Positions 2,586 to 17,772 are shown, counted from the stretch's first letter. The stretch: DNA of 26,785 bases from Gemmatimonadota bacterium (GCA_022573095.1 JACZUR010000001.1:1-26785), one strand, 5' to 3'. Notes: generated by a model from the letters alone, not told the origin. Program-made: numbers and translations.

Positions 2586-2703
2586 CTAGCTTCCTCGTCT
2601 GTAACGTAGGAGCACCAAAAATACTCCCGGCGGATAGGATACTACGGAAGCTTAAACGTGTCTTTGAGCAGCGAGACGATCAAGGCCCCGGGGAGGCAGT
2701 CGG

Positions 2704-3102
2704 TCAGGTCGAGCACATCACTGAACCCGCGCGGTCGGCTGGCGCCACGACGGCGGCCGTTCCAGTATAGATGGCGCAGGTCCTGGCAGTACTCGTATGC
2801 GAGCCTGTAGCACTCCAGCCAGACCCGCTCGCGGCACCGATCGTCATCGTAACGCCCTGCGACTCGTTGGCGCCGAGTGCCGTGAGACTGGTGGTGTAGG
2901 TGGTGTTGTCGCCGAAATAGCTCTCTTGCGCCGTCGCTAGGTTCCTGAGATCACCCCTGACCGCCGCGAGATGAGCCTTCTCTCTCGTAGTCGTAAACTT
3001 TGGGATCGCGATCGCCGCCAGAATGCCGATGATCACCACGACGATCAGCAGCTCGATAAGCGTAAAACCGTTCTTGCCAAGCGGAATGCGTCTTGCACTC
3101 AT
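2704..3102 (-). CDS. pilA: Type IVa pilin, second copy (pilA2), 132 aa
   Basis: MSARRIPLGKNG|FTLIELLIVVVIIGILAAIAIPKF with a C-terminal Cys pair (C97, C118 of the mature protein). Start reassigned from 3267 to the ATG at 3102, which has GAAGG upstream and gives a normal leader length. Confidence 0.92.
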   Translation of the reverse strand: MSARRIPLGKNGFTLIELLIVVVIIGILAAIAIPKFTTTREKAHLAAVRGDLRNLATAQESYFGDNTTYTTSLTALGANESQGVTMTIGAASGSGWSATGSHTSTARTCAIYTGTAAVVAPADRAGSVMCST

Positions 3103-3225
3103 AACCTTCGTCCGTGCCCGAAAAGCCGTAGATACCGTCGTCAGGCCAATTACAGACCTGTCTCCAAGAACCGCTGCTGTCAATAACCCGGGGAAAACAC
3201 GCCCGGAGACGCCTCGGATAAAGGC

Positions 3226-3265
3226 GGAAAGGGCGGCGAAGTGAAGCACCCCGCCGCCCCGTTCC
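3226..3265 (-). terminator. GC-rich hairpin, probable intrinsic terminator or attenuator between pilA1 and pilA2
   Basis: Minus strand GGGCGGCG...CGCCGCCC stem (3259-3252 pairs with 3238-3231; extendable via GGAA/TTCC), followed by TTTCCGCCTTT, an imperfect U-tract. Begins 18 bp after the pilA1 stop. Confidence 0.6.
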
Positions 3266-3282
3266 AACGCCCTATAGAGACG

Positions 3283-3663
3283 TTAGGTGGTGCACTTAAC
3301 CTCACCCTCGGTGTCAGCCGGAGGAACCGCTGCCTGGTTACCCAAGAAGATACCGCACGTCTTCGCGGTGGCGTTGTGCCCTGCAGTAGCACCCCAACCA
3401 CTACCAGTAGCTGCAGTGATCGTGATCGTGACGCCCTGCGATTCCGCGCCGTCAACAGCCGTCAGGCTGGTCGTGTACGTTACGTTGTCGGCGAAATACG
3501 ACTCCTCGGCCGTGGCCAGGTTCCGTAAATCCGACTTCATGGAGGCTAGGTAAGCCTTCTCACGAGTGTTGGAGAACTTCGGAATGGCGATTGCGGCCAA
3601 GATACCGATAATCACCACCACAATCAGAAGCTCAATTAGGGTGAAACCCTTGCGATTCAACAT
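3283..3663 (-). CDS. pilA: Type IVa major pilin (pilA1), 126 aa
   Basis: MLNRKG|FTLIELLIVVVIIGILAAIAIPKF, C-terminal Cys pair, strong RBS GGGGAGG, sigma-54 promoter upstream and hairpin downstream. Confidence 0.95.
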   Translation of the reverse strand: MLNRKGFTLIELLIVVVIIGILAAIAIPKFSNTREKAYLASMKSDLRNLATAEESYFADNVTYTTSLTAVDGAESQGVTITITAATGSGWGATAGHNATAKTCGIFLGNQAAVPPADTEGEVKCTT

Positions 3664-3756
3664 CTTTCCTCCCCTAGCAGTAAATAACCTACCGTCCCTC
3701 GAACCACCCGCATATACCGCGGGCTAGCAAATACCTCCGTTGGACTGGCTGAACAG

Positions 3757-3772
3757 TGCAATCTCCGTGCCT
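3757..3772 (-). promoter_or_regulatory. Sigma-54 (-24/-12) promoter of pilA1
   Basis: Minus strand reads AGGCACGGAGATTGCA (GG-N10-GC). Predicted TSS near 3746, giving a leader of about 80 nt. Fits the known RpoN/PilR control of pilA in Pseudomonas, Myxococcus and Geobacter. Confidence 0.8.
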
Positions 3773-3937
3773 GCATTCTACCGAGCGGGAGCTTGCGCGT
3801 AATCCGTTGGGTCGATTGATCTTACAAACGTTCCCTCGAATTCTTCGCTGCGCCAGCGTCACGGAAGGAAACCTCATTCTGCAATTGATCCGGCTAGACG
3901 CAAGACCTAGCGCCAAGCCACCGGTGATCAAGCAAGA

Positions 3938-3965
3938 GCGACACCACCGCGACATATTCGCGACA
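3938..3965 (-). repeat. Three TGTCGC direct repeats at 11-bp spacing (candidate activator binding sites)
   Basis: Plus-strand GCGACA at 3938, 3949 and 3960. Intergenic, about 165-195 bp upstream of the pilA1 -24 element. Confidence 0.6.
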
Positions 3966-3991
3966 TCCCCCGGTTGCGCGGCGGTTTTGCT

Positions 3992-5821
3992 CTACCAGCC
4001 ACACGAGGCACCTGCCTGGCGCTCTTCCTCCATGACGCTCTCGTAGAGATCCGAGCGCAAGGTGCGTACCAACCCCAGATTTTGACCCCACACAGCGCAG
4101 AAAGCCGGGTCAGTTCCCGTGCCCACCACGGCATTGAGCAGGAATCCCCATCTCTGTGTGGCTGAAACCGGCCTTCCCAGTAGCCATTCGGCTCTGGCGC
4201 GCGACAGTTGTTGTTTCCAGTCCGGCGCTCCTGTAATCGCCAACATATCCGCGTAAAGGAGCAGCGCTCCCGGCTCATCTGGAACCAGCGATAGCACACT
4301 CCGCGCCACCGCAAGAGCCGAGGCCGAATCTCCGTTGGACAGATGGACCCCCGCTAGTTGCAGGGCGAGGCGCGGGTTGCCTGGCTCGAGACCGAGGCTG
4401 CGTTCCGCCTCCCTGAGAGCAAGCTGATGGCGACCAAGCGAACTTGCCAGGGGAACCAACATCGGCGCGATCAGTGGCTCGTAGGGGAATATCGAAGCAG
4501 CCGTGACGTAGTGACCCAGTGCCGCAGTAGAGTCTCCGAGTTGTTCGAGCACTCTTGCAACTCGAATATGTGCTCGGAAGTTCTCGGGATGCTCTACTAG
4601 ATCCTCAACAATCACCGTGCGATTGTCTTTCCAGAACGGTGTGCGCGTAAAGGTTCTCACGCCGTAGGCGGTGCACAGAACAGCGACCGCCACAGCGGTG
4701 GCACGGAGGATCCGAGGGCTGTGGGCCCGCGTGATCACCCATCCCAGCGCGAGAGCGGGTGCAAGCGCGGCCAGATACAGTGTGCGTTCGGCAAGCGCTA
4801 CACCGGAGCTGAAGAACAGGTTGGACGTTGGAGCATAGCTGGCCACCGCAACGAGGACGCCAAATGTGATGGCCGGCGCTTTTTTCGCTACGATCACCGC
4901 CAGCACGACTACGGCCACCCCGAACACCACTGCCGCACCTGCGGCAATCCCGAGTTCCGTGCGTCGCGGTATCACCATCGGGTTGTAGTCGGCAGCTAGC
5001 TCGAATGGCCACACAAGCAGCCGCGTGACATCCCAGATCACAGGGAGAGCGGTGGCTAATCTTTCGGCCGCGTCGAGACCGCGCACGTTCGCGGCAATCG
5101 TGGATTCAACGAAACCACCGGCGATCGCTCTCCAAACGTAAAACCAACCAAGCGTTAACGCAGCGGCGTATATATACAGGCCAGCGCGTCGCGTGTTCGT
5201 CTTGCCGATATCGAGAAAGTGATCGAGCGCCAACACGAACACCGTAATCACACCAGCCTCTTTCGACAGCATCGCAAGCAGCGTGAACGCAATCGTCAGC
5301 ACCAACCACACCCCGGATCGGTTATGCTCATGGTGCCTATAACGGCGCGCGCTCAACACGGCAGCGAGTATCCATACGGTCACCAGTACCTCTGCTCTCC
5401 CTACCACATTGGCAACGGCCTCGACGTGCACGGGATGGACAGCGAACGTAACGCCGGCGGCGAGTGCTCCAAGCGGAGGAAACCAGCGCAGCACCACAAG
5501 TACGACAAGAATCGTGGCTACAGCGTGCATGATTGCGTTGGAAACGTGAAACCATGCAGGCGATCCGCCCGACAGCGTCCAGTCGATTCCGTAGGTGAGC
5601 ATTACAAACGGTCGGTACATTCCGGCGTTTACACCTGCCGATTCCGGCCAGTACGGCTCGAAAGCCGCATCCACGGCTGCGCCAATGGAGTGCGCGGCGG
5701 GATTTTCCGCCACGATAGGAGTGTCGTCCAGCGCCCAACCATTACGGAATGCCCCGGCGTAGATCACGAGAGCGACCAGGCCGGCTAGCAGAGCCGCTCT
5801 GAGAGGACCTAGTCGGGGCAT
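3992..5821 (-). CDS. TMTC-like (GT105/DUF1736-type) GT-C glycosyltransferase with C-terminal TPR region, ~609 aa
   Basis: Motifs in TMTC order: WALDDTPIV, MYRPFVMLTY, WFHVSN, FAVHPVHVEAVANVVGRAE, LSKEAG, LAADYNP, APTSNL, LAERTLYL, FWKDN, then TPR-like helices (ALREAERSLGLEPGNP). Start reassigned to the ATG at 5821, which overlaps the upstream stop by 13 bp. Confidence 0.85.
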   Translation of the reverse strand: MPRLGPLRAALLAGLVALVIYAGAFRNGWALDDTPIVAENPAAHSIGAAVDAAFEPYWPESAGVNAGMYRPFVMLTYGIDWTLSGGSPAWFHVSNAIMHAVATILVVLVVLRWFPPLGALAAGVTFAVHPVHVEAVANVVGRAEVLVTVWILAAVLSARRYRHHEHNRSGVWLVLTIAFTLLAMLSKEAGVITVFVLALDHFLDIGKTNTRRAGLYIYAAALTLGWFYVWRAIAGGFVESTIAANVRGLDAAERLATALPVIWDVTRLLVWPFELAADYNPMVIPRRTELGIAAGAAVVFGVAVVVLAVIVAKKAPAITFGVLVAVASYAPTSNLFFSSGVALAERTLYLAALAPALALGWVITRAHSPRILRATAVAVAVLCTAYGVRTFTRTPFWKDNRTVIVEDLVEHPENFRAHIRVARVLEQLGDSTAALGHYVTAASIFPYEPLIAPMLVPLASSLGRHQLALREAERSLGLEPGNPRLALQLAGVHLSNGDSASALAVARSVLSLVPDEPGALLLYADMLAITGAPDWKQQLSRARAEWLLGRPVSATQRWGFLLNAVVGTGTDPAFCAVWGQNLGLVRTLRSDLYESVMEEERQAGASCGW

Positions 5822-7314
5822 GTGAACCGATAGAGCTTGGGACCTTCCCGGACGCTGAACAATTGTTCGAGAGGAGATACTTCGGCTGTGCTGAGCGTCT
5901 GCAAAAGCCGAGCTGCAGGGGCGCCGGGACCTGACAAGGCGATGTGAGTTACTCCAGTTGCGCAATAGAAATGGACGCTCTCAGCTGGTGTCAGCGGAAT
6001 TTCGTCCCTTCCGTTCAAGCGACTGAGGTAACTTGGAACGGAAGACCTGCCCGTGTAGAGCGACAGCAACGCCTCATCCCCTCCTGCGATCACCGCGTCA
6101 CTAGGCAGTTCCTGCACAATTGACGATATAAGAAGCCGCAACGGCTGACTGATTCCCTCGGCGGTGGATGCAAACGCGCGGTTTCGCAGGGAGCTAATCT
6201 CCCTTGGTAGGAAGCCGATACCAATAACCAGGGCCGCCGCGCCAACCACTAGCTTCCAATATCTGTTCCGAGTCCAGAGATCGTGTAGAGCAACAGCCAT
6301 CAGCAGAAAAATCCACGGAAGCACCACCCACACGAACCGGTCCGGAGTATACGGCCAGACCGTTACTACGCTCGCATACAACCCAAGCGTAACGATCAAC
6401 GCCGGCAGTACGCGAAACGTTCTCGCCGCACCCCACACGATCAGCAATGAAACACACACGGCGGCAAGTGCCCACAGAGGCGTGGGGAGGGCTGGCAACA
6501 ACAATCGTGCGATCGGACTGAAAACTTGAAGACTTGCTCCACCAATGAACTGAATCAATCCCATCCCGCCCGAACCCTCTGAGTACGTACCGTACACCGA
6601 GGTCAGGCGCGGATCGAGTTCTCCAGAGTGGACGAGTAACCAGATTATCCACGGGAGAATCACGACAGTACCGGCTGCCAGCGAGACAAGACTCGAGCGG
6701 CGAGCACCACGGTACCAGAGCGAAATTGCAATGCCTAGTAGCCCGGCGAGCCCAAGGCTCCGCGTGAGAGTGGCCAATCCAGCTAGCAGCCCTGCGGCAA
6801 CCGCACGCTTCGTGGTGGCCTCACCTCCGTCGGCAATCAACAGAGAGCCGGAAAACAAGATGAGAAACAACGGCTCCGAGAATCGTACACCCACAATTGC
6901 CAGCAACGGGAAGGCGGCAAACGCCGCAACTAGGACGAGGCCGACGGAAAGTCCGGGTAGGGACAATCTCGCAACTGATCGAGCAATGACGAAAGCAGAC
7001 AGCCCATAGACCGCGGAGTCGAAGAGAGAGAAAAGCGCGAGGTTCGCCGGGAACGACGGCCAGACACGCCACAAGAAACTCAAAACGTACGGGTAGAGAA
7101 ACGGATAGCGGACTCCAGCCGGGTCCCCGGGAAGATGGCCGTACCTAAATCCCTCACCCTCGGCGAGAGACCTGGCGAGCGACAGATATATACCGTCGTC
7201 GTAGAAGACTCCGGCAAGGGCATCGGTCTGTGCCCAGAGTGCAATCGCGAAAACAACTAAGCCAAGTAGTCCCGGCCAAAGTCGCCGGACATCCTGCCAG
7301 ATCGTTATTCGCAT
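5809..7314 (-). CDS. GT-C-fold membrane glycosyltransferase (ArnT/PMT_2-like), 501 aa
   Basis: Acidic pair in the first external loop (VFYDDGIYLSLARSL), YPFLYP, SEPLF, LTRSLG, DRFVW. Many TM helices followed by a soluble C-terminal domain. 10-bp overlap with the upstream gene. Confidence 0.8.
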   Translation of the reverse strand: MRITIWQDVRRLWPGLLGLVVFAIALWAQTDALAGVFYDDGIYLSLARSLAEGEGFRYGHLPGDPAGVRYPFLYPYVLSFLWRVWPSFPANLALFSLFDSAVYGLSAFVIARSVARLSLPGLSVGLVLVAAFAAFPLLAIVGVRFSEPLFLILFSGSLLIADGGEATTKRAVAAGLLAGLATLTRSLGLAGLLGIAISLWYRGARRSSLVSLAAGTVVILPWIIWLLVHSGELDPRLTSVYGTYSEGSGGMGLIQFIGGASLQVFSPIARLLLPALPTPLWALAAVCVSLLIVWGAARTFRVLPALIVTLGLYASVVTVWPYTPDRFVWVVLPWIFLLMAVALHDLWTRNRYWKLVVGAAALVIGIGFLPREISSLRNRAFASTAEGISQPLRLLISSIVQELPSDAVIAGGDEALLSLYTGRSSVPSYLSRLNGRDEIPLTPAESVHFYCATGVTHIALSGPGAPAARLLQTLSTAEVSPLEQLFSVREGPKLYRFTCPD

Positions 7315-9116
7315 TGCAGATCCGCTATGCGCCGCTCAATCCTCAATGTGTCATTCAGCCCCGGATGTAGCTGCGCCGCACGCTCCATCGAGCGTAAGGC
7401 CTCTGGACAGTATCCAGCGTGAGCGGCTGCATCGGCAGTGAGATACCAGTACTGCCAGACACCGGGGAAACGCCACGTCAATTGACGGCGCAGTGTCATC
7501 GCTTTCAGATGTGTACCGCGCATGGACGCGATCTCCGCCAACAGAACCACAATTCGATGGTCCCTTCCGTGGAGATCAACGGCGGCGTTCGCCACTAACT
7601 CGGCAGAGTCTGGTTCACTCGCCCGAATGAAATTGCTCACGGAGTTCACGGCGTCATCCAATCTCGTAGGATCGATGCGAAACGAAGCAGCGTAGAACTG
7701 GCCGGCTTCAAGCCACCGTTCATCCTCTTCGAAGTAACTGGCCAGGTCGCTCCAGGCGTTCGAGAACAGAGGGTACGTGCCGATCGCCTGCCGCATGAGC
7801 TGCTCACCCCTTTCGCGATCGCCGGCATCGTATGCCAGGGCGCCGGCTACCCATATGCCTCTAAAGGATCCGGGGGCATCTCTTACCAGTTGCGGGAAGA
7901 ACACCGACGCATTCTTCCATACGGGGATGCGGTGGAGAGATCGGGCGAGACCAGCCCCAACAACTAATGCCACGACTGCCACCGATGCCCGCAGTCTCCT
8001 TGCCGAGGCCTGGGTCACTAGCCATCCGACCACTATCACAAATCCCACCGATGGCAGGTACATAGAGCGCTCCGCAAGCAGCACACCGCTTGGCACCAAG
8101 ACGTTCGATATGACCAGCAATGATCCTCCCATCCAGAGCAACCCGAACGTGACCTCGGGAAACCTCCTCGATGCCCGCACTCCGCCAATGAACGCGAGCA
8201 ACAGAATTACCACACCAAGGAGCAACTTTAGGGATAGTTCTGGCTCGCCGGAGAGGAAGTTGGGGGAGTAGTCCGCCGAAAGGTGTAGCGGAAACAGCAA
8301 CAGTCTGGCCCATTCAAATACTACCGGCGTCATCACTGTTACTCTGTCAACGAATCCAAGAGTGAAAACACCAGGCCCCGGATGGTCGCCTGCAAAGTCA
8401 CCTAGAATGAGCGACCTGAGTAACATCCACTCGGCGGCAACAACGAATGTGGCGATCAGCAGCGTTGCGTGACTTCGAACGCGCGAGGTTACGGCAACAC
8501 CAGATCGCCGCGCCTCCACCCAATCGACAACCAGCAGCAGTGCTGGTGCGCCGAGAGCTGACTCTTTTGAACCAAAGGCCAGCAGCAGGCACGCCAGCAC
8601 TCCGAACGACGTTAGCCATCGAATCAGGTTGGTAGTAGCGCGTACAGCAAGGCTTCCATCGATGCGGTAGAGAAGCGCGGCCGACACTACGAACAGGGTG
8701 GCCATTACGTCGGCCCTTCCGACCACATAGGAAACAGCTTCAACGTGCACGGGGTGGACGGCAAAGACCAGTGCCGCGGCGACCGCGCCGACTCTGGGCA
8801 ACACAGTACCACAAAGAACTAACACCAGGACTGAAGTCACCGCGTGCAAAAATACGTTGACTAGGTGAAAGTACCTGGGATCACCGTTGCTGACGGACCA
8901 GTCAAGCGCAAACGAGAGCTGCGTTACGGGCCTATATAGCGCGTCTGGCCACCAAGAGTCGGTCACAATAGACGCGAAGTTGCGCACCGAGTGAAGCTGC
9001 GTATTCCCCACGATGATGTGAACGTCGTCGTACACGAATTCGTGGCCGGCGCTGGTTGCGAACACCCCGACGGCCACTAACGCCACGATTACCCCGATAC
9101 CGACCGCAGGTCTCAC
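7305..9116 (-). CDS. TMTC-like (GT105/DUF1736-type) GT-C glycosyltransferase with C-terminal TPR region, 603 aa
   Basis: FVYDDVHII, LYRPVTQLSFALDW, FHLVNVFLH, FAVHPVHVEAVSYVVGRAD, SKESA, LSADYSP, LAERSMYLPSVG, VWKNA, then TPR-like helices. GTG start. Confidence 0.85.
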   Translation of the reverse strand: MRPAVGIGVIVALVAVGVFATSAGHEFVYDDVHIIVGNTQLHSVRNFASIVTDSWWPDALYRPVTQLSFALDWSVSNGDPRYFHLVNVFLHAVTSVLVLVLCGTVLPRVGAVAAALVFAVHPVHVEAVSYVVGRADVMATLFVVSAALLYRIDGSLAVRATTNLIRWLTSFGVLACLLLAFGSKESALGAPALLLVVDWVEARRSGVAVTSRVRSHATLLIATFVVAAEWMLLRSLILGDFAGDHPGPGVFTLGFVDRVTVMTPVVFEWARLLLFPLHLSADYSPNFLSGEPELSLKLLLGVVILLLAFIGGVRASRRFPEVTFGLLWMGGSLLVISNVLVPSGVLLAERSMYLPSVGFVIVVGWLVTQASARRLRASVAVVALVVGAGLARSLHRIPVWKNASVFFPQLVRDAPGSFRGIWVAGALAYDAGDRERGEQLMRQAIGTYPLFSNAWSDLASYFEEDERWLEAGQFYAASFRIDPTRLDDAVNSVSNFIRASEPDSAELVANAAVDLHGRDHRIVVLLAEIASMRGTHLKAMTLRRQLTWRFPGVWQYWYLTADAAAHAGYCPEALRSMERAAQLHPGLNDTLRIERRIADLQCE

Positions 9117-9157
9117 TGACTCATCCGCACATTGTCATATCGGCTCGACAGGTTCGT

Positions 9158-11146
9158 CTAATCGCGACTTCCCTCCCGTACCAGTTGCATGACCGGCATT
9201 GCGTTCGGATCGCTGGGAGGAGTGACAAGCCGCCAGACGGGCCACCCGGAGTAACGCTCCAACAACTCGACGTTCTGCTCAAACCGGTCACGTGCCCAGA
9301 CGATGCCTTCGGCGAGGTTGATCTCATTGCGCCAGCCGAGAGTTGGGTAAACTGTGAACCCCTCGAAGTCTCTGCGTAGTTCCAGCGCGCATTCCTCCGA
9401 GAGCGGCTGGTCAGGCCACAGCTTGAGCGTCGGATCAGGTGCACCCGGCACCTGGGGAGCGGCGACCGGGTTCTCCCGGACGAGCACCTCGAGCGCCACC
9501 GTGATCTCTTGCCGTGACTGCGTCGATCGGATCTCGTTTTCGGCGAACTCATGCAACTGGCACGCATCCAATGTCCTATACGCGTTCTCAATGAGGCTGT
9601 ACGGAGCCCCCAAGCTCCACAGCTTGCTTATCGTTCTGCTGCCCCAACTGACCGGAACCAGCACCAGAGCCTGAGAGACTGCCTGTTGCTCGAGTGTCTT
9701 TTCGGGGTGGAGCTTCAGGCGCGGTAAGGAGTCACGGTAGAACGCGAACCTAACCGGGAAAACCCCCACTGCACCCCAGACCAACACGACTGCAGCCAAT
9801 GCCGCTGCCGCGACATCCCAGCGGAGAAGGTGCGAGGATTTCAAGCGAGCGCGCACCCAGAGCCAGCGCCACGCTAATGCAGTACCGATCACGCCCCACG
9901 GAGCCATCGCATAGTAGAACCTGGGACCCGGGTGGAAACCCGAGTGCCAGTAGAAAAAGTACAGGAGCGGGGTTGTGACAACGCCCAGGCCGACTATCAG
10001 ATCACTGCGGCGTCCGTGACGCGAGGCGAAGGCCCACAAACCGAGCGGCAGCAGGGCGGGAATGGGCCATTCATAAAAATAGATGTGCAGCCGCCGAACT
10101 GCGGCAGACAAGTTCCCCAGCGCGATAAGAGGCGTAAACGGGTGCCCATAGGGATCTGTGTGAAATCCGATACCGTGCGCGGATCCCCACATAGTCGTGT
10201 ATCCCAGAGCGAGTGGATGCCCTAGTGTGACAGAGTTAAGGACTCCAAACGCCACTATGAGGGGCAGCCCCCCAATCACCATGAAACCAAGTTTTCTCCA
10301 GTGCCGGTGCATGGCCACCCACGCCATCACCGGGACGGCCGCCCCAATTGCGTCCAGAGGACGGGTCACTGCGACAACAGAGAGAGCGAAGCCCGCCAAA
10401 AGGAAGTGACGCCGACGTGGGAGCTTGGGAGCGAACAGCGCCGCCCAGGCCAGAAGGGAGAAAGCCACAGCACTCACGTGGTTCATATAGGTCGCGGACA
10501 TGAACACCACCCAAGCCGCCGAGGCCCATAGCAGCGCGGCCACCGTCGCCGTCTTGATACCGTAGAGACCGCGCGCTACAAAGTAAATGAGTATCGTGCT
10601 CAGACCGCCGAGCAAAGGATTGACCAACCATTCAAGGTCGAGCAGATATCCGACCGCCAGTAGCAGGCTCTGCCCGGGCGGGTACTGGGAGATCCAACCG
10701 GCGTCGGAGAGGAAGGTGTGGGTGAGCAGGAAGAACTCCGCCGGCTCTGGCGCCGGAGCCGCGATTCTACCCGCAGCGAAGATCTTGGCGTGGAACAGTT
10801 GTGCCATTTCATCTACGAGCTGCGGGCTGCGGGCGAACACCGCACTCGCGACCACGGCGGCGGCGATGGTCAAGGCAACCGCAAGGAAGAGTACCACCTT
10901 CACACCGTAGAATCCCGGCCAGTTCGGAGCGCGGAACCTGATGCTCAACCGACCACACAGCAGCGCGACAATGAGTACCACCGCTACACCAATTGCCGAG
11001 CTCGATGTATAGTCCCGCCAAGCCGGGCCCGTATCACGCGCCCCAACCCACTGTGCGATCGGTAAAAGGGGAACAAACAGGAGCAGTGTTCCCAAGGCAT
11101 ACCACACCCAGCGAGTTAAGCTCTTTCCCGCGCCTTTAATTCGCAT
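9158..11146 (-). CDS. GT-C-fold membrane glycosyltransferase (ArnT/PMT_2-like), paralogue B, 662 aa
   Basis: PQLVDEMA (DE pair in external loop), QYPP, TRPLDA, GPRFYY. Multi-TM core plus ~190-aa soluble C-terminal domain. Collinear with 11374..13362. No clear RBS at this ATG. Confidence 0.8.
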   Translation of the reverse strand: MRIKGAGKSLTRWVWYALGTLLLFVPLLPIAQWVGARDTGPAWRDYTSSSAIGVAVVLIVALLCGRLSIRFRAPNWPGFYGVKVVLFLAVALTIAAAVVASAVFARSPQLVDEMAQLFHAKIFAAGRIAAPAPEPAEFFLLTHTFLSDAGWISQYPPGQSLLLAVGYLLDLEWLVNPLLGGLSTILIYFVARGLYGIKTATVAALLWASAAWVVFMSATYMNHVSAVAFSLLAWAALFAPKLPRRRHFLLAGFALSVVAVTRPLDAIGAAVPVMAWVAMHRHWRKLGFMVIGGLPLIVAFGVLNSVTLGHPLALGYTTMWGSAHGIGFHTDPYGHPFTPLIALGNLSAAVRRLHIYFYEWPIPALLPLGLWAFASRHGRRSDLIVGLGVVTTPLLYFFYWHSGFHPGPRFYYAMAPWGVIGTALAWRWLWVRARLKSSHLLRWDVAAAALAAVVLVWGAVGVFPVRFAFYRDSLPRLKLHPEKTLEQQAVSQALVLVPVSWGSRTISKLWSLGAPYSLIENAYRTLDACQLHEFAENEIRSTQSRQEITVALEVLVRENPVAAPQVPGAPDPTLKLWPDQPLSEECALELRRDFEGFTVYPTLGWRNEINLAEGIVWARDRFEQNVELLERYSGWPVWRLVTPPSDPNAMPVMQLVREGSRD

Positions 11147-11373
11147 GTGAAAGCAACTAAAGAATCACAAGGGCCGCCTACACGTAGCCGTACTTGCGTT
11201 GCCATAGAGGGTCAGCGCATTCACAATCGCGCGCTGTACTCTCGGGGCTTTGGCCTTTCCACTCGATGTCCAGCTCGTCGAGGACGACGCGCTCGTCAAT
11301 GCGGTGACCGCCACAACTCGATAGCACAACCTTACGAATTCGCCAAATCAGAATCGGTACACTACGTGATCGC

Positions 11374-13362
11374 TCAACCACCCGCGCTTCCGGCTTCCAT
11401 TAGCTGCAGCACCGGAAGCGCGTTAGGTGCGTCCGTTGGGGGCGCGTAGCGCCAAATCGCCCAGCCGGGATATTTCTGCAACAACTCGTCGTTCTCTTCG
11501 AATCGGTCCCGTGCGAAAACAATTCCGTCGTTCAGTTCAACGTCGTTGCGCCATGCTAGATTGGGATAAAGCGTGAAACCTTCGAAATCTCTCTGTAACT
11601 GCACCTCACACGACGGTGAAAAGAACTGGCCTTCATGTATCTTGAGCGTTGGATCCGGAAAACCCGGCACTGCGACGGCCGCTACCGGATACTCGCCCAT
11701 TAGCGCCTCCAAATCCCTGCTGATCTCCGTCGGGGACTGCAAAAGGCGCGCGTCATCTTCTGCAAACTCATGCAGCGTGCATGCGTCCAGCCAGCGGTAC
11801 GCTCGTTCCACCAAACCCGGGATCACGCCCAAGCCCCACAGCTTCGCTATCGTCCGGCTGCCCCAGCTGACCGGAACGAGTACCACTGCCTGCGTAACTC
11901 CCAGTCCTCTCAATTCTTGTTCTGGATGGAGTTTCAGGCTGGGCAAAGCATCGCGGTATATCGCATACCGTATCGGGAACACAACCACCGCACCCCAAAT
12001 CAACACCGTAATGGCGCCCGCAGCGCTGGCCACGTCCCACCGGACCAGCCTGTGCGACGCCGCACGAGCGCGTTCCCATAACCACAGCCACGCCAGCGCC
12101 GTGCCGATAACCACCCACGGCACGAGCGCATAATAGAATCTGGGTCCTAGGAAAAAACCTGAATGCCAGTAGAAAAAATAAAGGAACGGGGTGATAAGAA
12201 TACCCGAACCCACGACTAGGTCGCTGACGCTTTTCCGCCGCGGAACGAGAGCCCACAGCCCGAGCGGAAGCAGCGCGGGGATCGGCCACTCAAACAGATA
12301 AATATGCAACCGCCGTACGGCCGTAGACAGGTTCGCGAGAGCTACCAGAGGAGTAAACGGCTCCCCGTACGGATCAGTGTAAAATCCTAGAGCATGCGAC
12401 GCGCCAAAGAGTCGAGTATAGCCCAGGGTGAACAGAGTGCCGTATGCGGCCTGGTTCACCGCCGCCCATGCTAGCATTACCGGCATGCCAGCAACTGCCA
12501 TCCAGGGCAGCTTCTTCCACAACTGAGGGCGGGCGGCTACCCACACGAGGATGGGAACGGCAGCAGCGACTGCATCTAGAGGCCGCGAGGCCGCTGCGAG
12601 TGAAAGCGCGAACCCGGCTAAGATGAAATGTCTGAGCCGAGGCGTCTGTGGAGCGAATAACGCGGCCCATGCGCCAAGGGAAAAGAAAGCACTGCTTACG
12701 TGACTCACGTACGTACCTGACATTATGACTACCCAACCTGCCGTCGCCCAAAGCAACGCGCTTACGGTCGCGGTCCTAACTCCGTAAAGGCCGCGCGCCG
12801 TCAGGTAGACGAGTACAGTACTGAGACCGCCGAGTACGGGGTTTACAAGCCACTCCGATCTCAGCAAGAACCCGACGGCCAGCAGGGCGCTTTGTACGGG
12901 AGGATAGTGCGAGACCCATCCCTGTTCGTTCACGAAAGTCCATGTGATCAAGAAAAACCCTGCCGGATCCGGAGGCGGGGCGACAACTCTGCCCGACGAG
13001 AATGTCTTGGCCGTGAACAGTAGCGCCATCTCGTCAACGAGCTGAGGATTCCGGGCGAAAGCCTCATTCATCACGAACACCGACGCCAGCGTTAGACCTA
13101 TTCCCAGCGCGACGGCAACCTTCCAGCCGTAAACACCGCGCCACGCGGGCGCTTTCAAAGGTGTGCTCACACGCCCAGCAAGAACCGCAATAGTTATCAC
13201 CACCGTGATACCTAGTGCCCATCCCGACAGATATCCGGCCCAGTCCGGACCGGGGTCCCCGGCTCCAATCCAAGCGGCGACGGGGAACGCCGGGACGGCC
13301 AGGATCACAGCCCCGACAGCGTACCACACCCAGTTATTGATCGTTTTTAGCAATTGTCTCAT
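11374..13362 (-). CDS. GT-C-fold membrane glycosyltransferase (ArnT/PMT_2-like), paralogue A, 662 aa
   Basis: [24 protein letters not shown]. Start overlaps the GT2 3' end by 29 bp. Confidence 0.8.
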
Positions 13363-14083
13363 TGCGACGGGAGAGGATGTTGAAGCGCACCAGATGCCAG
13401 AGAGCGGCTACACCATCTCGCCAGTCGATCTTCTTACCCTCGGCGTAAGTGCGTCCGCTGTAACTGATCGGAATTTCCCAGATGCGGGCCTCGGCCTGAG
13501 CGAGCCGGGCGGTTACTTCGATTTCAAAGCCGAACCTGTTCGACACGAGGTGCAGCGACTGCAGCACTTCCGCGCGGACCATCTTGTAGCAGGTTTCCAC
13601 GTCGGTGAGATTGAGATCCGTCAGCATGTTAGACAGCAGAGTGATGAACCTGTTTCCCAACGAGTGCCAGAAATACAGCACCCTTCGAGGACCACCGTGA
13701 AACCGTGATCCGTAGGTTGCGTCTGCATCGCCTCTGATGATAGGATCAAGAAGATGTGGGAACTCATGGGGATCGTACTCCAGGTCCGCATCCTGGACGA
13801 CTATGACGTCTCCGGTTGCGCTTTGGATTCCGCGGCGCAGAGCAGCCCCTTTCCCCAGATTGCGCTCCTGATGAAATACCTTATCCAGCAGCCCCTCTGC
13901 GAGTAATCCATCCAGCACCGAATCGGACCCGTCCGTAGATCCATCGTTGACCGCGATCACCTCCAGTTTAAGGGGAACCTCCCGCACCTTGTTAACAATC
14001 GCTCTAACCGTCGTTGCTTCGTTGTAGACCGGAATGATCACCGACAGAAGGAGATCACTGAATCCTTTGAGTTGATGCGTCAC
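13334..14083 (-). CDS. GT2 family, polyprenol-phosphate sugar (DPM/DPG-like) synthase, 249 aa
   Basis: [34 protein letters not shown] (DxD), [17 protein letters not shown] start overlaps the methyltransferase stop (GTGA), with AGGTG as RBS. Confidence 0.92.
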
Positions 14084-14775
14084 TGCTTTTCACCTACTGC
14101 AATTACGGACTGACCAACTCTCCATGGAATAAGTCGTTCCTGCCGAAACACCGGCACCAATGAGTCGTACAGCTTGAGTACCTTCACTGGAATCACTTTC
14201 TTTTTCAGAACTCTCCCCGTAAACCACCAGCCCAACATGCTACCCATGTTAAAGTATTCAAGATGAACGACTCGGAACCCGGTTTCAGCAAGAACCGTAC
14301 GGAGCGAACGTTTGGTGTATCGCCGAAAATGAGAAAGAGCAGCGTCCAGCGTTCCGAACAACCACTGAAAAGCGGGCACGAGGAGTACTAGTCGTCCGTC
14401 TTTTTCCAACAGCGATCGCATGGACGAAAGCGCGGCCCGGTCGTCCTCAATGTGCTCCAAGACGTTCACACAAAGTATCGACTGAAATCGGTCGCCAGTC
14501 AGCGTGGAGGGGACCTCGGGCAATATCATTTTCTCGAAGCGCACACCGCCTAGCTCGCCAAACTTGTCGCGGAGCAGTTCAAGGTATGCGTCATCAATAT
14601 CAGTCAGCACGACTCGTTCGCGTTCCACAAAGAACTGAGACAAGTTGCCTATACCAGAACCCACCTCCAGCACTGAATTCCCAAGCCAGGAATCAAACCT
14701 GCTGTACATCCAACGATTGAACGCGGGAGCGTCCGTCAGTCTTTCGAGCGTCGTGGCGCCAAGAGCGTCCTCCAC
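14080..14775 (-). CDS. Class I SAM-dependent methyltransferase, ~231 aa
   Basis: Motif [36 protein letters not shown]. Start reassigned to the GTG at 14775 ([13 protein letters not shown]), just after the pilR stop; the longer track start overlaps pilR. Confidence 0.85.
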
Positions 14776-14782
14776 CCGGATA

Positions 14783-16159
14783 TCAATCAGCGGAGTCGTC
14801 GCCAAAGCGCGACAGCTTACGATAGAGCGTTGACGGATCAATGCCGAGAACCTCGGCGGCCCGGGTCTTGTTACCGCTCTCGCGCTGAAGTACCCACATT
14901 ATGTACGCTTGCTCGACCGACTCTAGCGTTGGGTTATCTAACGGCCGATCGGACACAAACTGCTGCGACTTTCCGGCAGTGATGCGCTTCGGCAGCGCTG
15001 ATACAGCTAGTTCGTCCTCCTTAGCTAGCACGACGGCGTGTTCAAGAGCGTTTTCCAACTCCCGGACGTTGCCGGGCCAGTCGTAGCTGACAATCGCTTC
15101 AAGGGTTTCCTGCGCCAGCATTTTGGGACTCTCGTCTCGGCTCGCCGCAATCTTCTGCAGAGAAGCATCGACTAGCAGTGGGATATCCTCTGGGCGCTCG
15201 CTCAGCTTTGGCAGATGTATCGCAATGACATTGATTCGATAGAAGAGATCAGAGCGAAAACTGCCCCTTCTGATTTCTTCCTCTAGATCCCGGTTGGTAG
15301 CCGCGATGATACGCACGTCGACGGGGATCGGTTCGGTTCCTCCGACCGGCAGCACCTCCCGTTCCTGCAGTACGCGCAACAACTTCACTTGCGTCGCCGG
15401 TGTCGTCTCGCCGATTTCATCGAGGAAGAAGGTGCCACCGCGAGCGGCCGCAAACAGGCCCTGTTTGTCCCGCACGGCCCCGGTGAAAGAGCCCTTTAGG
15501 TGGCCAAACAATTCGGATTCCAGCAAGCTTTCTGGAAGGGCGCCGCAGTTGATCGAAAAGAAAGAGCCTTCGCTTCTTTGCGACAGCTCGTGGATGTACC
15601 GTGCAATAACTTCTTTCCCCGTACCGCTGGCACCTTGAAGTAGCACGGTGGATTCCGTGGGAGCCACCTGCCCTGCAAGTTTCATGACATCGAGAAACGG
15701 CTTCGACTTCCCGATGGGTTTGACGCTTACGGACCTTTCGCGCCGCCTTATTTCACTTTTGAGCTGTTTGTTCTCTGAGCGTAACCTGCGGTATTCGAGC
15801 GCGCGATTACAGATCGCGATCAGGTCGTCGTTTGAAAAAGGTTTCTGGATATAGTAGAAGGCACCCTGGTTAACCGCCTGGATTGCGCTCTGAAGCGTAG
15901 CCTGCGCCGTCATCAAGATCACGGGTGTTTCAGGATCTTGTTCGCGCGCTGACTCCAGAACGTCTAAACCGGTCACCTGAGGCATCCGGATATCGGTAAG
16001 CACGATATCCGGCGCTACCGTAGAGATCGCCGCGAGCCCGGCCTTGCCTCCCTGGGCGGTTTCAACCTGATATCCTGAATTCCTGAGAAGGATCTTGAGC
16101 GTATCTAGAATCCCGGCCTCGTCATCGATCACCAGGATCGTGGGGTTTAGCTGATTCAT
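14783..16159 (-). CDS. pilR: Sigma-54-dependent response regulator, PilR-like, 458 aa
   Basis: REC (LVIDDE, TDIRMP, YIQKPF), GASGTGKE, ELFGHLKGSFTGA, FLDEI, WPGNVRELEN, HTH (AAEVLGIDPSTLYRKL). Name rests on the pilB-T-C-S-R synteny. Confidence 0.88.
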   Translation of the reverse strand: MNQLNPTILVIDDEAGILDTLKILLRNSGYQVETAQGGKAGLAAISTVAPDIVLTDIRMPQVTGLDVLESAREQDPETPVILMTAQATLQSAIQAVNQGAFYYIQKPFSNDDLIAICNRALEYRRLRSENKQLKSEIRRRERSVSVKPIGKSKPFLDVMKLAGQVAPTESTVLLQGASGTGKEVIARYIHELSQRSEGSFFSINCGALPESLLESELFGHLKGSFTGAVRDKQGLFAAARGGTFFLDEIGETTPATQVKLLRVLQEREVLPVGGTEPIPVDVRIIAATNRDLEEEIRRGSFRSDLFYRINVIAIHLPKLSERPEDIPLLVDASLQKIAASRDESPKMLAQETLEAIVSYDWPGNVRELENALEHAVVLAKEDELAVSALPKRITAGKSQQFVSDRPLDNPTLESVEQAYIMWVLQRESGNKTRAAEVLGIDPSTLYRKLSRFGDDSAD

Positions 16160-17772
16160 GCCGCTTTCCCCGTGTTTCCGGACGACGGGAGTACAACAGT
16201 GAAGACGGTTCCCACACCTTGGTTTGATTCCACGTACACAACGCCCTGATGCGCATCAACGGCTCGCTGCACGATGGCGAGGCCGAGACCTGTGCCGCCG
16301 ACCCTTCCTGTCACGAATGGTTCAAAGAGACGGTTTAGTAGATCACTAGGTATCCCGGGTCCGGTATCGGACACCATTATGACGGCCGGTCCCTCGAAGG
16401 TAATTCCTCCGGGAATGTCACCGGGTTGTCCATGTCTTACCGTCACCGTTACTTTACCTCCTTCGCCGGCGGCCTGAATCGCGTTGAGCACGAGATTGAA
16501 CACGATGCTATGAATGAGATCCTCGTCTCCGTTTATCTCGACATCGTCACCTTCTATTGTAACCTGGGATCCGGAGCGGCAGTCGGGATGTTCTCCCGCC
16601 ATCCTCGCCGCTTCCGTTACCACGGTCAGTAAGTTCAAACTGACACGCTGAGTAACCCTTACTCTCGCAAAATCGAGAAACTCGGACAGCAAACCGCTCA
16701 GCCGATCACTTTCTCTCACCACCAGTTGGGTAAGAAATTTCTCATCCTCCCCAGTTTGCATCGATCGCGACAACTGCTCGACCGAAGAGCGAATCGAGGC
16801 GAGTGGGTTCTTGATCTCGTGTGCAAGCGAAGCCGACATTTCAGCCACGGCCTCTAGCCGTTCGTTCCTGAGTTTGAGGTCCTCAATGCGCTTGGATTCC
16901 GAGATGTCCGTGAAGATGGCGGACACATTACCCTCGCCGACGTTGATGCTCGTTGTCGTAAGACCGAAGGGAAAAACATCATCCCCCCGCTTGATCTCTG
17001 CTTCGAAGCGTCGTACACTCATCCCGTCGCGCTGAGTTAGGGAAAGTACGCGCGCCATTTCCGGAGCAACTTCGGCGAGCAAATCGTTTACTGATTCGCC
17101 AATCGCAGCTTCCGCATCAAGTCCAAGCAACTGCTCCGCCACCGGATTGAGGTAGGACAGCTTGCCGCTTCCGTCCATCGTGAGAATGCCACTGCGTAGG
17201 TTGTCGAGTATATCACTTGCCTCGAGCCGGAGTCTCTCGACCTCCTCTTCTAGTATCTGCCGTTCTGAAGCGACGGCGCGGACCTTGCTGGCAATCCAAC
17301 CCGCAGCAAGCGAAACAAGCACGAACAGCGCTAGCTGGAGCCACAGCGCCACAGAAAGGTCCGGCGGGTTGAACCAAAAGATCACGGCGAAGTAGAGGAC
17401 TCCTGCCAGTAGCGTGATCAAGAGACTAGAAGCGAACGGGAAGAGGAGGGAGCTCAGCGATATCACAAGGATATACAGAGGGGCGAAGTTGCTCGTAAAA
17501 CCGCCGGTTACGTGCACCACGGCGGTAACCAACGCGAGATCGAAGAGAGTCTGGACATAGAGGAACGTCTGGCCTGGCGCGACTCGCCTTACCTCCGTGT
17601 ACCAAGCCGATACGGCACTCACGCTTACGCTGAGCACGGCGGCAGACGCCACCATGACGAGTATGCCCGGTTCGACTTCCTTGAAGTAGAAGGCTGCCGC
17701 TACGTAGATACCGATCGCCACACATACGCGACCTATATAGGCAAGGCGAAGCAATGCCCTGACGTCGGGCAT
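16156..17772 (-). CDS. pilS: Sensor histidine kinase, PilS-like (multi-TM, PAS, HisKA, HATPase_c), 538 aa
   Basis: About six N-terminal TM helices (DLALVTAVVHVTGGFTSNFAPLY, typical of PilS), PAS-like GILTMDGSGKLSYLNPVAEQLLG, AHEIKNPL, NLVLNA, DTGPG, GGTGLGL. ATGA overlap with pilR. Confidence 0.87.
   Translation of the reverse strand: MPDVRALLRLAYIGRVCVAIGIYVAAAFYFKEVEPGILVMVASAAVLSVSVSAVSAWYTEVRRVAPGQTFLYVQTLFDLALVTAVVHVTGGFTSNFAPLYILVISLSSLLFPFASSLLITLLAGVLYFAVIFWFNPPDLSVALWLQLALFVLVSLAAGWIASKVRAVASERQILEEEVERLRLEASDILDNLRSGILTMDGSGKLSYLNPVAEQLLGLDAEAAIGESVNDLLAEVAPEMARVLSLTQRDGMSVRRFEAEIKRGDDVFPFGLTTTSINVGEGNVSAIFTDISESKRIEDLKLRNERLEAVAEMSASLAHEIKNPLASIRSSVEQLSRSMQTGEDEKFLTQLVVRESDRLSGLLSEFLDFARVRVTQRVSLNLLTVVTEAARMAGEHPDCRSGSQVTIEGDDVEINGDEDLIHSIVFNLVLNAIQAAGEGGKVTVTVRHGQPGDIPGGITFEGPAVIMVSDTGPGIPSDLLNRLFEPFVTGRVGGTGLGLAIVQRAVDAHQGVVYVESNQGVGTVFTVVLPSSGNTGKAA

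Follow-up and report, generated by a model that had tools for sequence, protein, structure and literature searches.

The Wzy_C/O-antigen-ligase-like enzymes PglL/PglO, TfpO (PilO), and TfpM take a glycan that has been preassembled on undecaprenyl pyrophosphate and transfer it as a whole. In actinobacterial O-mannosylation (Ppm1 and Pmt) and in the PpgS/Rv3779 system, a small GT2 enzyme instead makes a polyprenyl-phosphate sugar that feeds a GT-C enzyme outside the cytoplasm; many secreted proteins or arabinogalactan are the targets, and neither system is known to be pilin-linked. Three-component systems (GtrABC, ArnC/ArnEF/ArnT, and the pentofuranose systems of Kelly et al.) likewise use the polyprenyl-phosphate sugar of a GT2-type synthase for periplasmic transfer by a GT-C enzyme (PMC11194591). 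The closest known system to the locus described here, judged by its published description, is TfpW of P. aeruginosa group IV strains (Pa5196/PA7), a pilin D-arabinofuranosyltransferase that modifies pilin Ser/Thr residues and guards against pilus-specific phages (bioRxiv 10.1101/2020.04.19.049825; 10.1101/150227; PMC11194591). A membrane enzyme of the GT-C type, TfpW carries a DDx motif in its first periplasmic loop and a predicted TPR domain at its C-terminus, and in the periplasm it both attaches and polymerizes monosaccharides taken from a lipid-phosphate donor (bioRxiv 10.1101/2020.04.19.049825). Synthesis of the donor, a lipid-phosphate monosaccharide, takes place in the cytoplasm before the molecule is flipped to the periplasmic side (bioRxiv 10.1101/2020.04.19.049825; 10.1101/150227; PMC11194591), and tfpW adjoins pilA on its downstream side (bioRxiv 10.1101/2020.04.19.049825; PMC11194591).

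We analyzed a stretch of 26,785 nucleotides from a Gemmatimonadota bacterium (GCA_022573095.1, JACZUR010000001.1:1-26785), referred to as the window, in which the minus strand carries every gene. The host bacterium originates from marine sediment. Gene calls and Pfam confirm what an initial annotation had read between pilR and pilA1, namely seven co-oriented genes in the order MT, GT2, P5, P4, P3, P2, and P1. Judging from sequence, these genes probably constitute a pilin-directed periplasmic glycosylation island that follows a lipid-phosphate-monosaccharide logic of the three-component, TfpW-like kind. The features are:

2704..3102, minus strand: pilA2, tandem pilin paralogue (N_methyl motif; 70% identical to PilA1)
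3283..3663, minus strand: pilA1, type IVa major pilin and presumed acceptor (N_methyl, E 2e-9)
3758..3771, minus strand: sigma-54 promoter element (-24/-12 type, GGCAC-N5-TTGC) preceding pilA1; no second exact match occurs in the window
3992..5821, minus strand: P1, GT-C-like membrane domain (~11 helices) with C-terminal TPR, pilA-adjoining copy (TPR_14/19/16)
5809..7314, minus strand: P2, unnamed-family GT-C carrying a small alpha/beta domain at its C-terminus (AF2/Foldseek)
7305..9116, minus strand: P3, GT-C-like membrane domain with C-terminal TPR, pilA-distal copy (TPR_16/TPR_14)
9158..11146, minus strand: P4, tandem P5 paralogue (PMT_2 21.7-25.8 bits, just under the cut-off)
11374..13362, minus strand: P5, PMT_2/ArnT-type GT-C (PMT_2 28.3 bits, cut-off 26.1)
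13334..14083, minus strand: GT2, small putative polyprenyl-phosphate sugar synthase (PF00535, E 2e-35)
14080..14775 (GTG start) or 14080..14841 (longest ORF), minus strand: MT, SAM-dependent methyltransferase (Methyltransf_23/12/25/11, E 1e-14 to 1e-8)
14783..16159, minus strand: pilR, encoding a sigma-54 response regulator and bordering the island upstream (Pfam Response_reg, Sigma54_activat, and HTH_8)

Adjacent genes overlap at four of the six internal junctions (MT/GT2 by 4 bp, GT2/P5 by 29 bp, P3/P2 by 10 bp, and P2/P1 by 13 bp), in line with the 4-29 bp previously given for most neighbors; gaps of 227 bp and 41 bp separate P5 from P4 and P4 from P3, and the pilR stop codon lies 7 bp from the GTG start of MT. 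Contigs from four independent studies (metagenome assemblies) bridge every island junction at >99% identity, and the arrangement of the locus is therefore real. The sigma-54 element precedes the ATG of pilA1 by ~90 bp, which gives this gene a promoter distinct from the island.

All five membrane enzymes are GT-C-like, as had been proposed, on evidence of unequal strength: the fold for P2, Pfam for P4 and P5, and motifs and profiles for P1 and P3. Each carries one or more conserved acidic residues after the N-terminal helix, presumably within the first extracytoplasmic loop. P4 and P5 are assigned to the GT-C enzymes via Pfam PMT_2, with P5 above and P4 just below the cut-off, and P4 additionally by its 60% identity to P5 across 654 residues. 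D110 in the VDEM loop of both is near-invariant among 10 family members. The Atlas neighbors of P5 are ArnT/PMT_2 clusters, P4 weakly matches the NCBIfam LA_3751/LA_3752 putative glycosyltransferase family, and the C-terminus of P5 forms a periplasmic domain of ~200 aa with no assigned fold. P2 has no match in Pfam or NCBIfam; its AF2 model (pLDDT 95) yields Foldseek matches to STT3, ArnT 5f15, DPY19, ALG9, AglB, AftA, and PglB (E of order 1e-8 to 1e-4, 2e-8 at best; TM 0.5-0.6), and the modeled membrane domain has the GT-C fold. Among 81 homologues, the residues D40 and R326 hardly vary (D40 is conserved in at least 90%). At E<=1e-3, 2214 representative clusters match P2, and weaker paralogues of its family are also located away from pil loci.

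The DD loop, a TMTC-like motif, a sub-threshold PMT_2 score, and a profile-profile match together suggest that P1 and P3 are GT-C-like. P1 reaches 25.4 bits against PMT_2, under the cut-off, aligns with the P2 family by hhalign at 88% probability with the DD motifs in register, and has PMT_2 clusters as Atlas neighbors (score 0.98). Its AF2 model (pLDDT 90) displays ~11 long helices preceding the TPR helices, and TPR matches fill its Foldseek list; the Pfam TPR matches span residues 458-574 of the longest ORF, corresponding to ~410-526 of the 609-aa protein. Residues D32, D33, H129, H132, E134, R142, K187, E188, E345, and R346 are invariant among 49 homologues. P3 is 27% identical to P1 (E 8e-45), with DD at residues 30-31, an HPVHVE motif at 121, and TPR matches at residues 427-586. 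P3 orthologues form their own well-supported clade, which never adjoins pilA, and P1 orthologues form the pilA-proximal clade; TPR-type enzymes have moreover been duplicated repeatedly within lineages. P1 is likely the pilin-directed transferase.

The reading of GT2 as DPM-synthase-like is borne out by its top PDB matches, Pyrococcus DPM synthase 5mlz (6e-17), GtrB, and ArnC. NCBIfam matches to AglJ, PpgS (E 7e-17), Dol-P-hexose transferase, and ArnC all fall under their (equivalog) cut-offs, which supports GT2 at the level of the family and not for a given sugar. Across 14 relatives, no variation occurs in the DAD motif or in 77 columns of the alignment, and TM helix prediction finds no helix. 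GT2 is thus supported as similar to polyprenyl-phosphate sugar synthases and as the putative donor maker. Outside Gemmatimonadota, its subfamily mostly occurs without pil linkage, and the pairing of GT2 with MT recurs in other phyla. As MT is found in only part of the relatives, we regard it as accessory. Pfam reveals no flippase of the GtrA, ArnE/F, or MATE type among the seven island genes, and a profile search finds no GtrA family member (PF04138) in the 80%-complete genome.

A synteny survey supports the claimed link to pilins. Orthologues of pilR (65-79% identity) are present in 40 of 41 genomes searched, a count that includes the window's own genome. Of 40 order-level relatives, 28 have glycosylation genes immediately after pilR, a layout also found in named Gemmatimonadales, Gemmatimonadaceae, and Longimicrobiales MAGs; in six relatives, pilR is directly succeeded by pilA or the next regulator, and in the remaining six the slot runs into contig ends. 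The gene adjoining pilA encodes a TPR-type GT-C in 19 of 21 complete slots. The pilin link is hence strong, as the pilR-to-pilA slot is kept across relatives, and the six relatives devoid of the island indicate that it is dispensable for piliation. Slots contain one to five GT-C enzymes among close relatives, without a fixed set, around a conserved core of GT2, a P2-type, and a TPR-type GT-C; tandem pilins number one to four copies. Compared with a same-genus relative, the GT-C enzymes share 45-53% identity and pilB, pilT, pilC, and pilR 71-84%, a faster divergence than that of their neighbors, which would fit a function in surface diversity.

Related combinations exist beyond the phylum. In the gammaproteobacterium L073, a PMT_2 GT-C is followed by a GT2 that shares 57% identity with that of the window, then by two PilA genes and, last, by a homologue of P1; this last GT-C, directly downstream of pilA, matches P1 with 98% probability (E 2.7e-13). 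PilA lies directly upstream in 4 of 21 gammaproteobacterial P1-homologue loci. In the Terriglobia MAG L050, an acidobacterium, a P1-type GT-C is placed between two pilins, with the GT2 6 kb off. Pilins, a P1-like GT-C, and a GT2 from the window's subfamily are hence brought together independently in a gammaproteobacterium and an acidobacterium.

Compared with TfpW by the latter's description, P1 and P3 are also GT-C-like enzymes with a DD loop and a TPR tail, P1 likewise adjoins pilA, and P1 has a homologue in the gammaproteobacterial GT-C encoded directly downstream of pilA. The initial annotation, which set the island apart from the "single GT-C TfpW", understates this precedent, as TfpW has the architecture of P1/P3, adjoins pilA, and uses a lipid-phosphate donor. 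Because architecture, position, and presumed donor logic are shared, the island probably represents an expanded TfpW variant and not a new kind of system: the lipid-phosphate-monosaccharide logic is known already, and what is new is a multi-enzyme, GT2-fed island conserved across the phylum. The TfpW system has one transferase, whereas the island encodes five from three families; tfpW lies downstream of pilA, whereas the island enzymes lie upstream, between pilR and pilA; and TfpW depends on a DprE1/DprE2-type D-Araf pathway for its donor, in contrast to the putative DPM-synthase-like GT2 of the island. Domain searches find no DprE-like gene in the window, and a pattern search detects the Emb/TfpW proline motif YX6PFX7P in none of the island GT-C enzymes. 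With the three-component systems the island shares a GT2 matching GtrB and ArnC, but those systems modify O-antigen or lipid A rather than a presumed protein acceptor and have a dedicated flippase, whereas the island encodes none and its five GT-C enzymes share one synthase. The eukaryotic O-mannosyltransferases TMTC1-4 resemble P1 and P3 in ~11 membrane helices followed by a lumenal/periplasmic TPR domain, in an acidic pair in the first loop, and in a FAVHP-x-H motif within a membrane helix (FAVHPVHVE in P1/P3; LLFAVHPIHT in human TMTC3, PMC7801869). A chordate TMTC cluster is among the Atlas neighbors of P1 (score 0.93). The earlier label "TMTC-like" for P1 and P3 holds for motif and TPR-tailed architecture, but not for the Pfam definition by TMTC_DUF1736 (PF08409, the TM7-TM8 loop), for which a genome search gives 13.5 bits at best (P3, E 0.13; cut-off 27 bits) and no match in P1. 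TMTC acceptors are cadherin domains, as opposed to the presumed pilin acceptor here. GT2 weakly matches NCBIfam PpgS, pointing to a likeness with the Ppm1/PpgS systems, and Pfam detects neither PMT (PF02366) nor MIR domains in the five GT-C enzymes. PglL/TfpO are similar in their presumed outcome, an O-glycosylated type IV pilin, and in being encoded at a pilin locus; a Wzy_C/O-antigen-ligase domain is absent from all seven island proteins in Pfam and NCBIfam.

The analysis establishes the gene content, the folds and motifs, and a slot by pilA that is conserved but varies in content; acceptor and donor, as well as the sequence of steps and the role in the cell, are inferred. The cytoplasmic GT2 would use a nucleotide sugar to charge polyprenyl phosphate with a sugar, and a putative flippase would carry this lipid-linked donor across the inner membrane. 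In the periplasm, the GT-C enzymes would then move single sugars onto a pilin still anchored in the inner membrane. The TPR-tailed enzymes, above all P1, would probably recognize the pilin and form the protein-sugar bond on Ser/Thr, and P2, a member of the conserved core along with GT2 and the TPR-type enzyme, would probably form a further linkage of a different type. P3, P4/P5, and the methyltransferase may be accessory and diversify the glycan or its sites. The glycan might also shield the pilus from phages, a role put forward in the initial annotation.

How the five transferases share this work can also be read in two other ways, neither of which we favor strongly. They may, along the lines of the initial annotation, act in sequence at one site as a strict, ER-like assembly line for one defined oligosaccharide, in which the TPR enzymes prime, the others extend, and the methyltransferase caps the sugar. 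One donor synthase feeding five transferases from three families, a conserved core of GT2 and two unlike GT-C enzymes (P2 type and TPR type), and the old, positionally fixed paralogues P1 and P3, suggestive of non-redundant roles, speak for such an order, as do mycobacterial mannan/arabinan synthesis and TfpW, where GT-C enzymes elongate from lipid-phosphate monosaccharides (PMC11194591). We nevertheless consider it doubtful, since an obligate pipeline would poorly tolerate one to five enzymes among close relatives, two TPR-tailed enzymes suggest two protein-directed activities and not a single primer, and TfpW alone both primes and polymerizes. Slightly less probable still is that each GT-C puts one sugar on different Ser/Thr residues or on different pilins (PilA1, PilA2, and minor pilins). 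TMTC1-4 and POMT1/2 divide their substrates and provide a model for such parallel action, with which the variable, modular GT-C copy number, the tandem pilins, the repeated duplication of TPR-type enzymes, and the TPR tails as typical protein-recognition modules agree. However, P2, P4, and P5 lack a TPR and have other C-terminal domains instead, and the number of GT-C enzymes does not follow that of the pilins.

The target may also be other than the major pilin, that is, LPS/lipid A, exopolysaccharide, PilQ, minor pilins, or many periplasmic proteins, with the position in the pil locus owed only to PilSR co-regulation. Located after pilR and in part overlapping its neighbors, the island may share the pilSR transcript while pilA1 has a sigma-54 promoter of its own; PMT_2/ArnT-type enzymes commonly modify lipids and glycans, and the GT2 subfamily is widespread, usually without pil linkage. 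We judge this unlikely, as a TPR-type GT-C adjoins pilA in nearly all complete slots, independent pilA-GT-C pairings occur in two other phyla, and other GT2/GT-C pairs elsewhere in the genome could serve lipid or glycan targets.

Complex prediction of P1 with PilA1 gave no support, which by the tool's own statement is no evidence either way. In Ser/Thr content, pilins of island-bearing genomes exceed those of island-less genomes only marginally, in small and non-independent samples. PilA1 itself consists of a 6-aa leader and a 120-aa mature protein with a C-terminal disulfide loop, and its N-terminal part matches the NCBIfam Myxococcus-type PilA. Ser and Thr make up a fraction of 0.23 in the globular part of PilA1 and of 0.27 in PilA2.

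The 26.8-kb window is a complete contig of a Gemmatimonadota metagenome-assembled genome (MAG) of 2.08 Mb, about 80% complete, and marine-sediment metagenomes from at least nine studies contain DNA near-identical to it. All genes of the window are carried on the minus strand, in the following transcription order:

first in order, minus strand: SprA-like protein, M28 peptidase, ComEA
next, minus strand: pilB, pilT, pilC, pilS, pilR
14080-14775 (longest ORF to 14841), minus strand: MT, class I SAM methyltransferase
13334-14083, minus strand: GT2, 249 aa
11374-13362, minus strand: P5, PMT_2-type membrane protein, 662 aa
9158-11146, minus strand: P4, PMT_2-type membrane protein, 662 aa, 60% identical to P5
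7305-9116, minus strand: P3, membrane protein with TPR tail
5809-7314, minus strand: P2, 501-aa membrane protein, no Pfam or NCBIfam match
3992-5821, minus strand: P1, membrane protein with TPR tail
3283-3663, minus strand: pilA1
2704-3102, minus strand: pilA2
163-2585, minus strand: second histidine kinase and sigma-54 activator pair

The seven genes that the initial annotation had placed between pilR and pilA1 (MT to P1, here the island) are confirmed. Contigs that four studies assembled independently span 2600-16200 with >99% identity and run across each of the junctions; one of them includes pilR-MT-GT2-P5-P4 and another P4-P3-P2-P1 up to the pilA1 promoter region. Because all junctions are bridged in this way, the arrangement is not an assembly artefact. 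If each gene is given its most likely start codon, overlaps (of 4, 29, 10, and 13 bp) occur at four of the six island junctions, as had been claimed for most of them, and gaps of 227 and 41 bp separate the genes at the other two. No feature was found in the 227-bp gap between P5 and P4, an Rfam search yielded no match, and sigma-70 promoter-like and terminator-like sites are no more frequent than in shuffled sequence. Only one exact match to a sigma-54 -24/-12 element occurs in the window, at ~90 bp upstream of pilA1. At intergenic position 3854, also upstream of pilA1, all four independent metagenome assemblies contain one extra A after this position; the window may harbor a 1-bp assembly error or a variant here, leaving coding unaffected. 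The activator encoded after pilA2 is 42% identical to PilR, and the kinase-activator pair is found at the same place in many relatives, with or without the island (L020, L038, L039, L045, L118, L125, and L127).

Linkage to pilin is the strongest result of this analysis, and the synteny survey upheld the initial annotation in this respect. Among 40 relatives of the same order, in 39 of which pilR was located and its downstream genes were read, 28 carry GT2 and/or GT-C genes after pilR and six have pilA or the next regulator directly after it, the contig ending before the slot between pilR and pilA could be resolved in six. An equal layout is present in named Gemmatimonadales, Gemmatimonadaceae, and Longimicrobiales MAGs. 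Slot content ranges from GT2 alone up to seven genes, with a common minimal set of a P2-type GT-C, GT2, and a TPR-type GT-C, to which a methyltransferase and PMT_2-type enzymes are accessory. The neighbor of pilA is a TPR-type GT-C in 19 of the 21 slots captured from pilR to pilA. A phylogenetic tree of these enzymes places P1 and P3 in two distinct clades, both well supported and both extending across more than one family, the P1 clade being proximal and the P3 clade distal to pilA. Identities to a same-genus relative are 45-53% for the GT-Cs, 68% for GT2, and 71-84% for pilB, pilT, pilC, and pilR. The locus is organized differently in family f3 (L024-L026, L021, and L023), where a P2-type GT-C after pilR is followed by a different GT2 (~29% identical to that of the window) and no pilA is present within the next 6-7 kb.

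PilA1 and PilA2 share 70% identity, and each has a prepilin leader and a C-terminal disulfide loop. The Ser/Thr content of pilins is ~0.23 in genomes with the island versus ~0.18 in those without, a difference of no weight given how few and how closely related the samples are, and the length of the disulfide loop does not cleanly split the two groups. A third major-pilin-like gene, ~50% identical to PilA1, is located on another contig (C261) of the same MAG. The island-less relative L125 (genome G018, 12512-13455) carries pilin homologs after pilR in split pieces with an aberrant C-terminus, which may be frameshifted or degraded.

Because of its solved relatives and NCBIfam matches, GT2 belongs to the polyprenyl-phosphate sugar synthase group: its nearest solved structures are Pyrococcus dolichyl-phosphate mannose synthase, GtrB, and ArnC, and it matches AglJ, PpgS, Dol-P-hexose transferase, and ArnC in NCBIfam, all under the equivalog cut-offs. 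It has zero predicted membrane helices, and the source names of its homologs are generic and give no hint of the sugar. For P2, a model built from 81 homologs (pLDDT 95) resembles STT3, ArnT, DPY19, ALG9, AglB, AftA, and PglB, and P2 is a GT-C enzyme of an unnamed family with >2000 representative clusters. When profiles of the P2 and P1 families were searched by sequence against the PDB, the result was nothing or TPR proteins alone. P5 scores above the PMT_2 cut-off and P4 slightly below, and D110 is near-invariant in their family. Of the fold assignments in the initial annotation, GT-C membership stood for P2 by Foldseek, for P5 by the PMT_2 cut-off, and for P4 by its near-threshold PMT_2 score and its identity to P5. 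Neither a PglL- nor a TfpO-type enzyme was detected among the seven island proteins using Pfam and NCBIfam. The P2 C-terminus (residues 405-501; window 5809-6100) forms a small alpha/beta domain of high model confidence, retained by close relatives and not assigned to any annotated family. Likewise, the C-terminal thirds of P4 and P5 (window 9158-9750 and 11374-11970) contain a ~200-aa domain past the last membrane helix, with near-invariant residues C528, C585, D592, R618, and D619 (P5 numbering) and no family match.

P1 and P3 are paralogs (27% identity), both displaying a DD pair directly past the first helix and a FAVHPVHVE motif; the FAVHP-type motif is also present in human TMTC3 (PMC7801869). 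In the P1 model (pLDDT 90), ~11 long helices lead into a TPR superhelix, and the top 50 Foldseek matches of the full model were all to TPRs, leaving the membrane domain uncovered. Its PMT_2 match reaches 25.4 bits, under the cut-off, and its Atlas neighbors are PMT_2 clusters and one chordate TMTC cluster. Profile-profile comparison of the P1 and P2 families aligned their DD motifs at a probability of 88%; the P2-family profile run by hhalign against the single sequences of P1, P3, and P5 gave uninformative probabilities of 0.1-9%, on which the profile-profile run improves. The PMT_2, Atlas, and profile evidence is indirect and is consistent with a GT-C-like membrane domain in P1 and P3. These enzymes had been called TMTC-like, which is correct for architecture and motif; because neither reaches the Pfam TMTC signature DUF1736, they are not TMTC members by Pfam definition. 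A predicted complex of P1 with mature PilA1 scored 0.00, a score that is no evidence either way.

The contrast that the initial annotation drew with the single GT-C TfpW makes too little of this enzyme as a forerunner. In P. aeruginosa group IV strains, TfpW is a GT-C that bears a DDx motif in its periplasmic loop 1 and ends in a predicted C-terminal TPR domain; its gene adjoins pilA, and it attaches and polymerizes D-arabinofuranose, using a lipid-phosphate donor (bioRxiv 10.1101/2020.04.19.049825). A published scheme shows it as the pilus case of “three-component” glycosylation in the periplasm (PMC11194591). Because TfpW adds monosaccharides to pilin in this manner, the central mechanism of the initial annotation, in which a GT-C adds monosaccharides to pilin in the periplasm, has a direct precedent. 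P1 and P3 share its architecture of a DD-loop GT-C-like domain with a TPR tail, and the P1 gene likewise adjoins pilA. Unlike the single transferase TfpW, however, the island encodes five putative ones, from three GT-C families; its presumed donor enzyme is a DPM-synthase-like GT2 instead of a DprE-type arabinose pathway; it lies between pilR and pilA, includes a methyltransferase, and is conserved across a phylum. The proline motif of TfpW/Emb is absent from the island GT-Cs. Synechococcus elongatus Ogt was considered as a TPR-bearing GT-C equivalent and rejected, being a cytoplasmic GT41 enzyme. Literature searched outside most subscription journals contained no account of GT-C genes arrayed between pilR and pilA, nor of Gemmatimonadota pilin glycosylation.

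The initial interpretation is thus partly supported, the pilin link standing and the mechanism being already precedented by TfpW. The putative glycosylation island is real, conserved, and linked to pilin, and is best read as an expanded GT2-fed variant of the TfpW type; which acceptor and sugar it uses, and in what order its enzymes act, are inferences. Some acceptor besides pilin is unlikely. None of the seven genes codes for a flippase, and a search of the incomplete genome revealed no GtrA-family gene. How five GT-Cs would share the work can be pictured as serial extension or as parallel, site-specific addition. The variable number of enzymes speaks against an obligate fixed pipeline, whereas non-redundant roles are suggested by the core of two enzymes and by the paralogs, which are old and fixed in position; both modes are therefore possible. 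We regard as rather doubtful the more specific proposal of an OST-independent, multi-enzyme periplasmic pathway, in which bacterial TMTC relatives would prime the protein and a defined, possibly methylated pilin oligosaccharide would be built stepwise from one polyprenyl-phosphate sugar.

Gemmatimonadota are abundant in soils and sediments, yet we are aware of no information on their pili. Should the island glycosylate pilin, TfpW-like glycosylation, so far seen in a few Proteobacteria, would reach across a whole phylum, and the system would prove open to combinatorial expansion, with anywhere between one and five transferases at a locus. Such expansion fits selection for surface diversity, e.g., by pilus-specific phages, from which pilin glycosylation shields P. 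aeruginosa (bioRxiv 10.1101/150227). Direct demonstration of TMTC transferase activity was lacking according to a 2021 analysis (PMC7801869), and a TPR-tailed GT-C encoded alongside its 120-residue substrate would be a tractable bacterial model for TMTC-type O-glycosyltransferases. The OST-independent multi-enzyme reading, if true, would be the prokaryotic equivalent of O-mannosylation in the ER, acting on a substrate that is small and defined, and the island could supply OST-free parts for periplasmic glyco-engineering.

TfpW-like pairing of pilin and GT-C was also seen in a gammaproteobacterium and an acidobacterium. The GT2 subfamily, 50-58% identical across at least ten phyla, without membrane helix and named only “glycosyltransferase family 2”, mostly occurs elsewhere without pil linkage; a GT-C lies near GT2 in about 11 of 70 loci, directly adjoining it in several, and the pilin association is repeated in two. 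In gammaproteobacterium CCP3-SC15AN1 (L073, 8541-15371), a PMT_2 GT-C overlapping GT2 is followed by two Pfam-Pilin genes and then by a 619-aa P1 homolog, with a DUF5131 gene on the opposite strand between GT2 and the PilA genes. The 619-aa protein aligns to the P1 family with DD and HP motifs matched (hhalign probability 98%, E 2.7e-13), and the locus represents a smaller, independent counterpart of the island. In a Terriglobia MAG (L050), a P1-type GT-C is flanked by two pilin genes, 6 kb off GT2. The P1 membrane-domain profile identified homologs in 64 of 300 sampled Gammaproteobacteria, a tally including one genome flagged unpublished (G082) on which no other claim rests; PilA is encoded directly upstream on the same strand, i.e., in the tfpW arrangement, in 4 of 21 P1-homolog loci with 1.5-kb flanks. 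In about ten loci of other phyla, an MT homolog (34-41% identity) lies directly 3' of GT2, which suggests a conserved pair:

13334-14841, minus strand: GT2 and MT of the window
related loci with GT2 and MT: L065, L069, L076, L078, L081, L087, L094, L099, L111, L115

Within the MAG of the window, further PMT_2-type GT-C genes are located on three other contigs (among C223, 6361-10107; C240; C271; and C261), and one of them has another, distantly related GT2 (28% identity) nearby.
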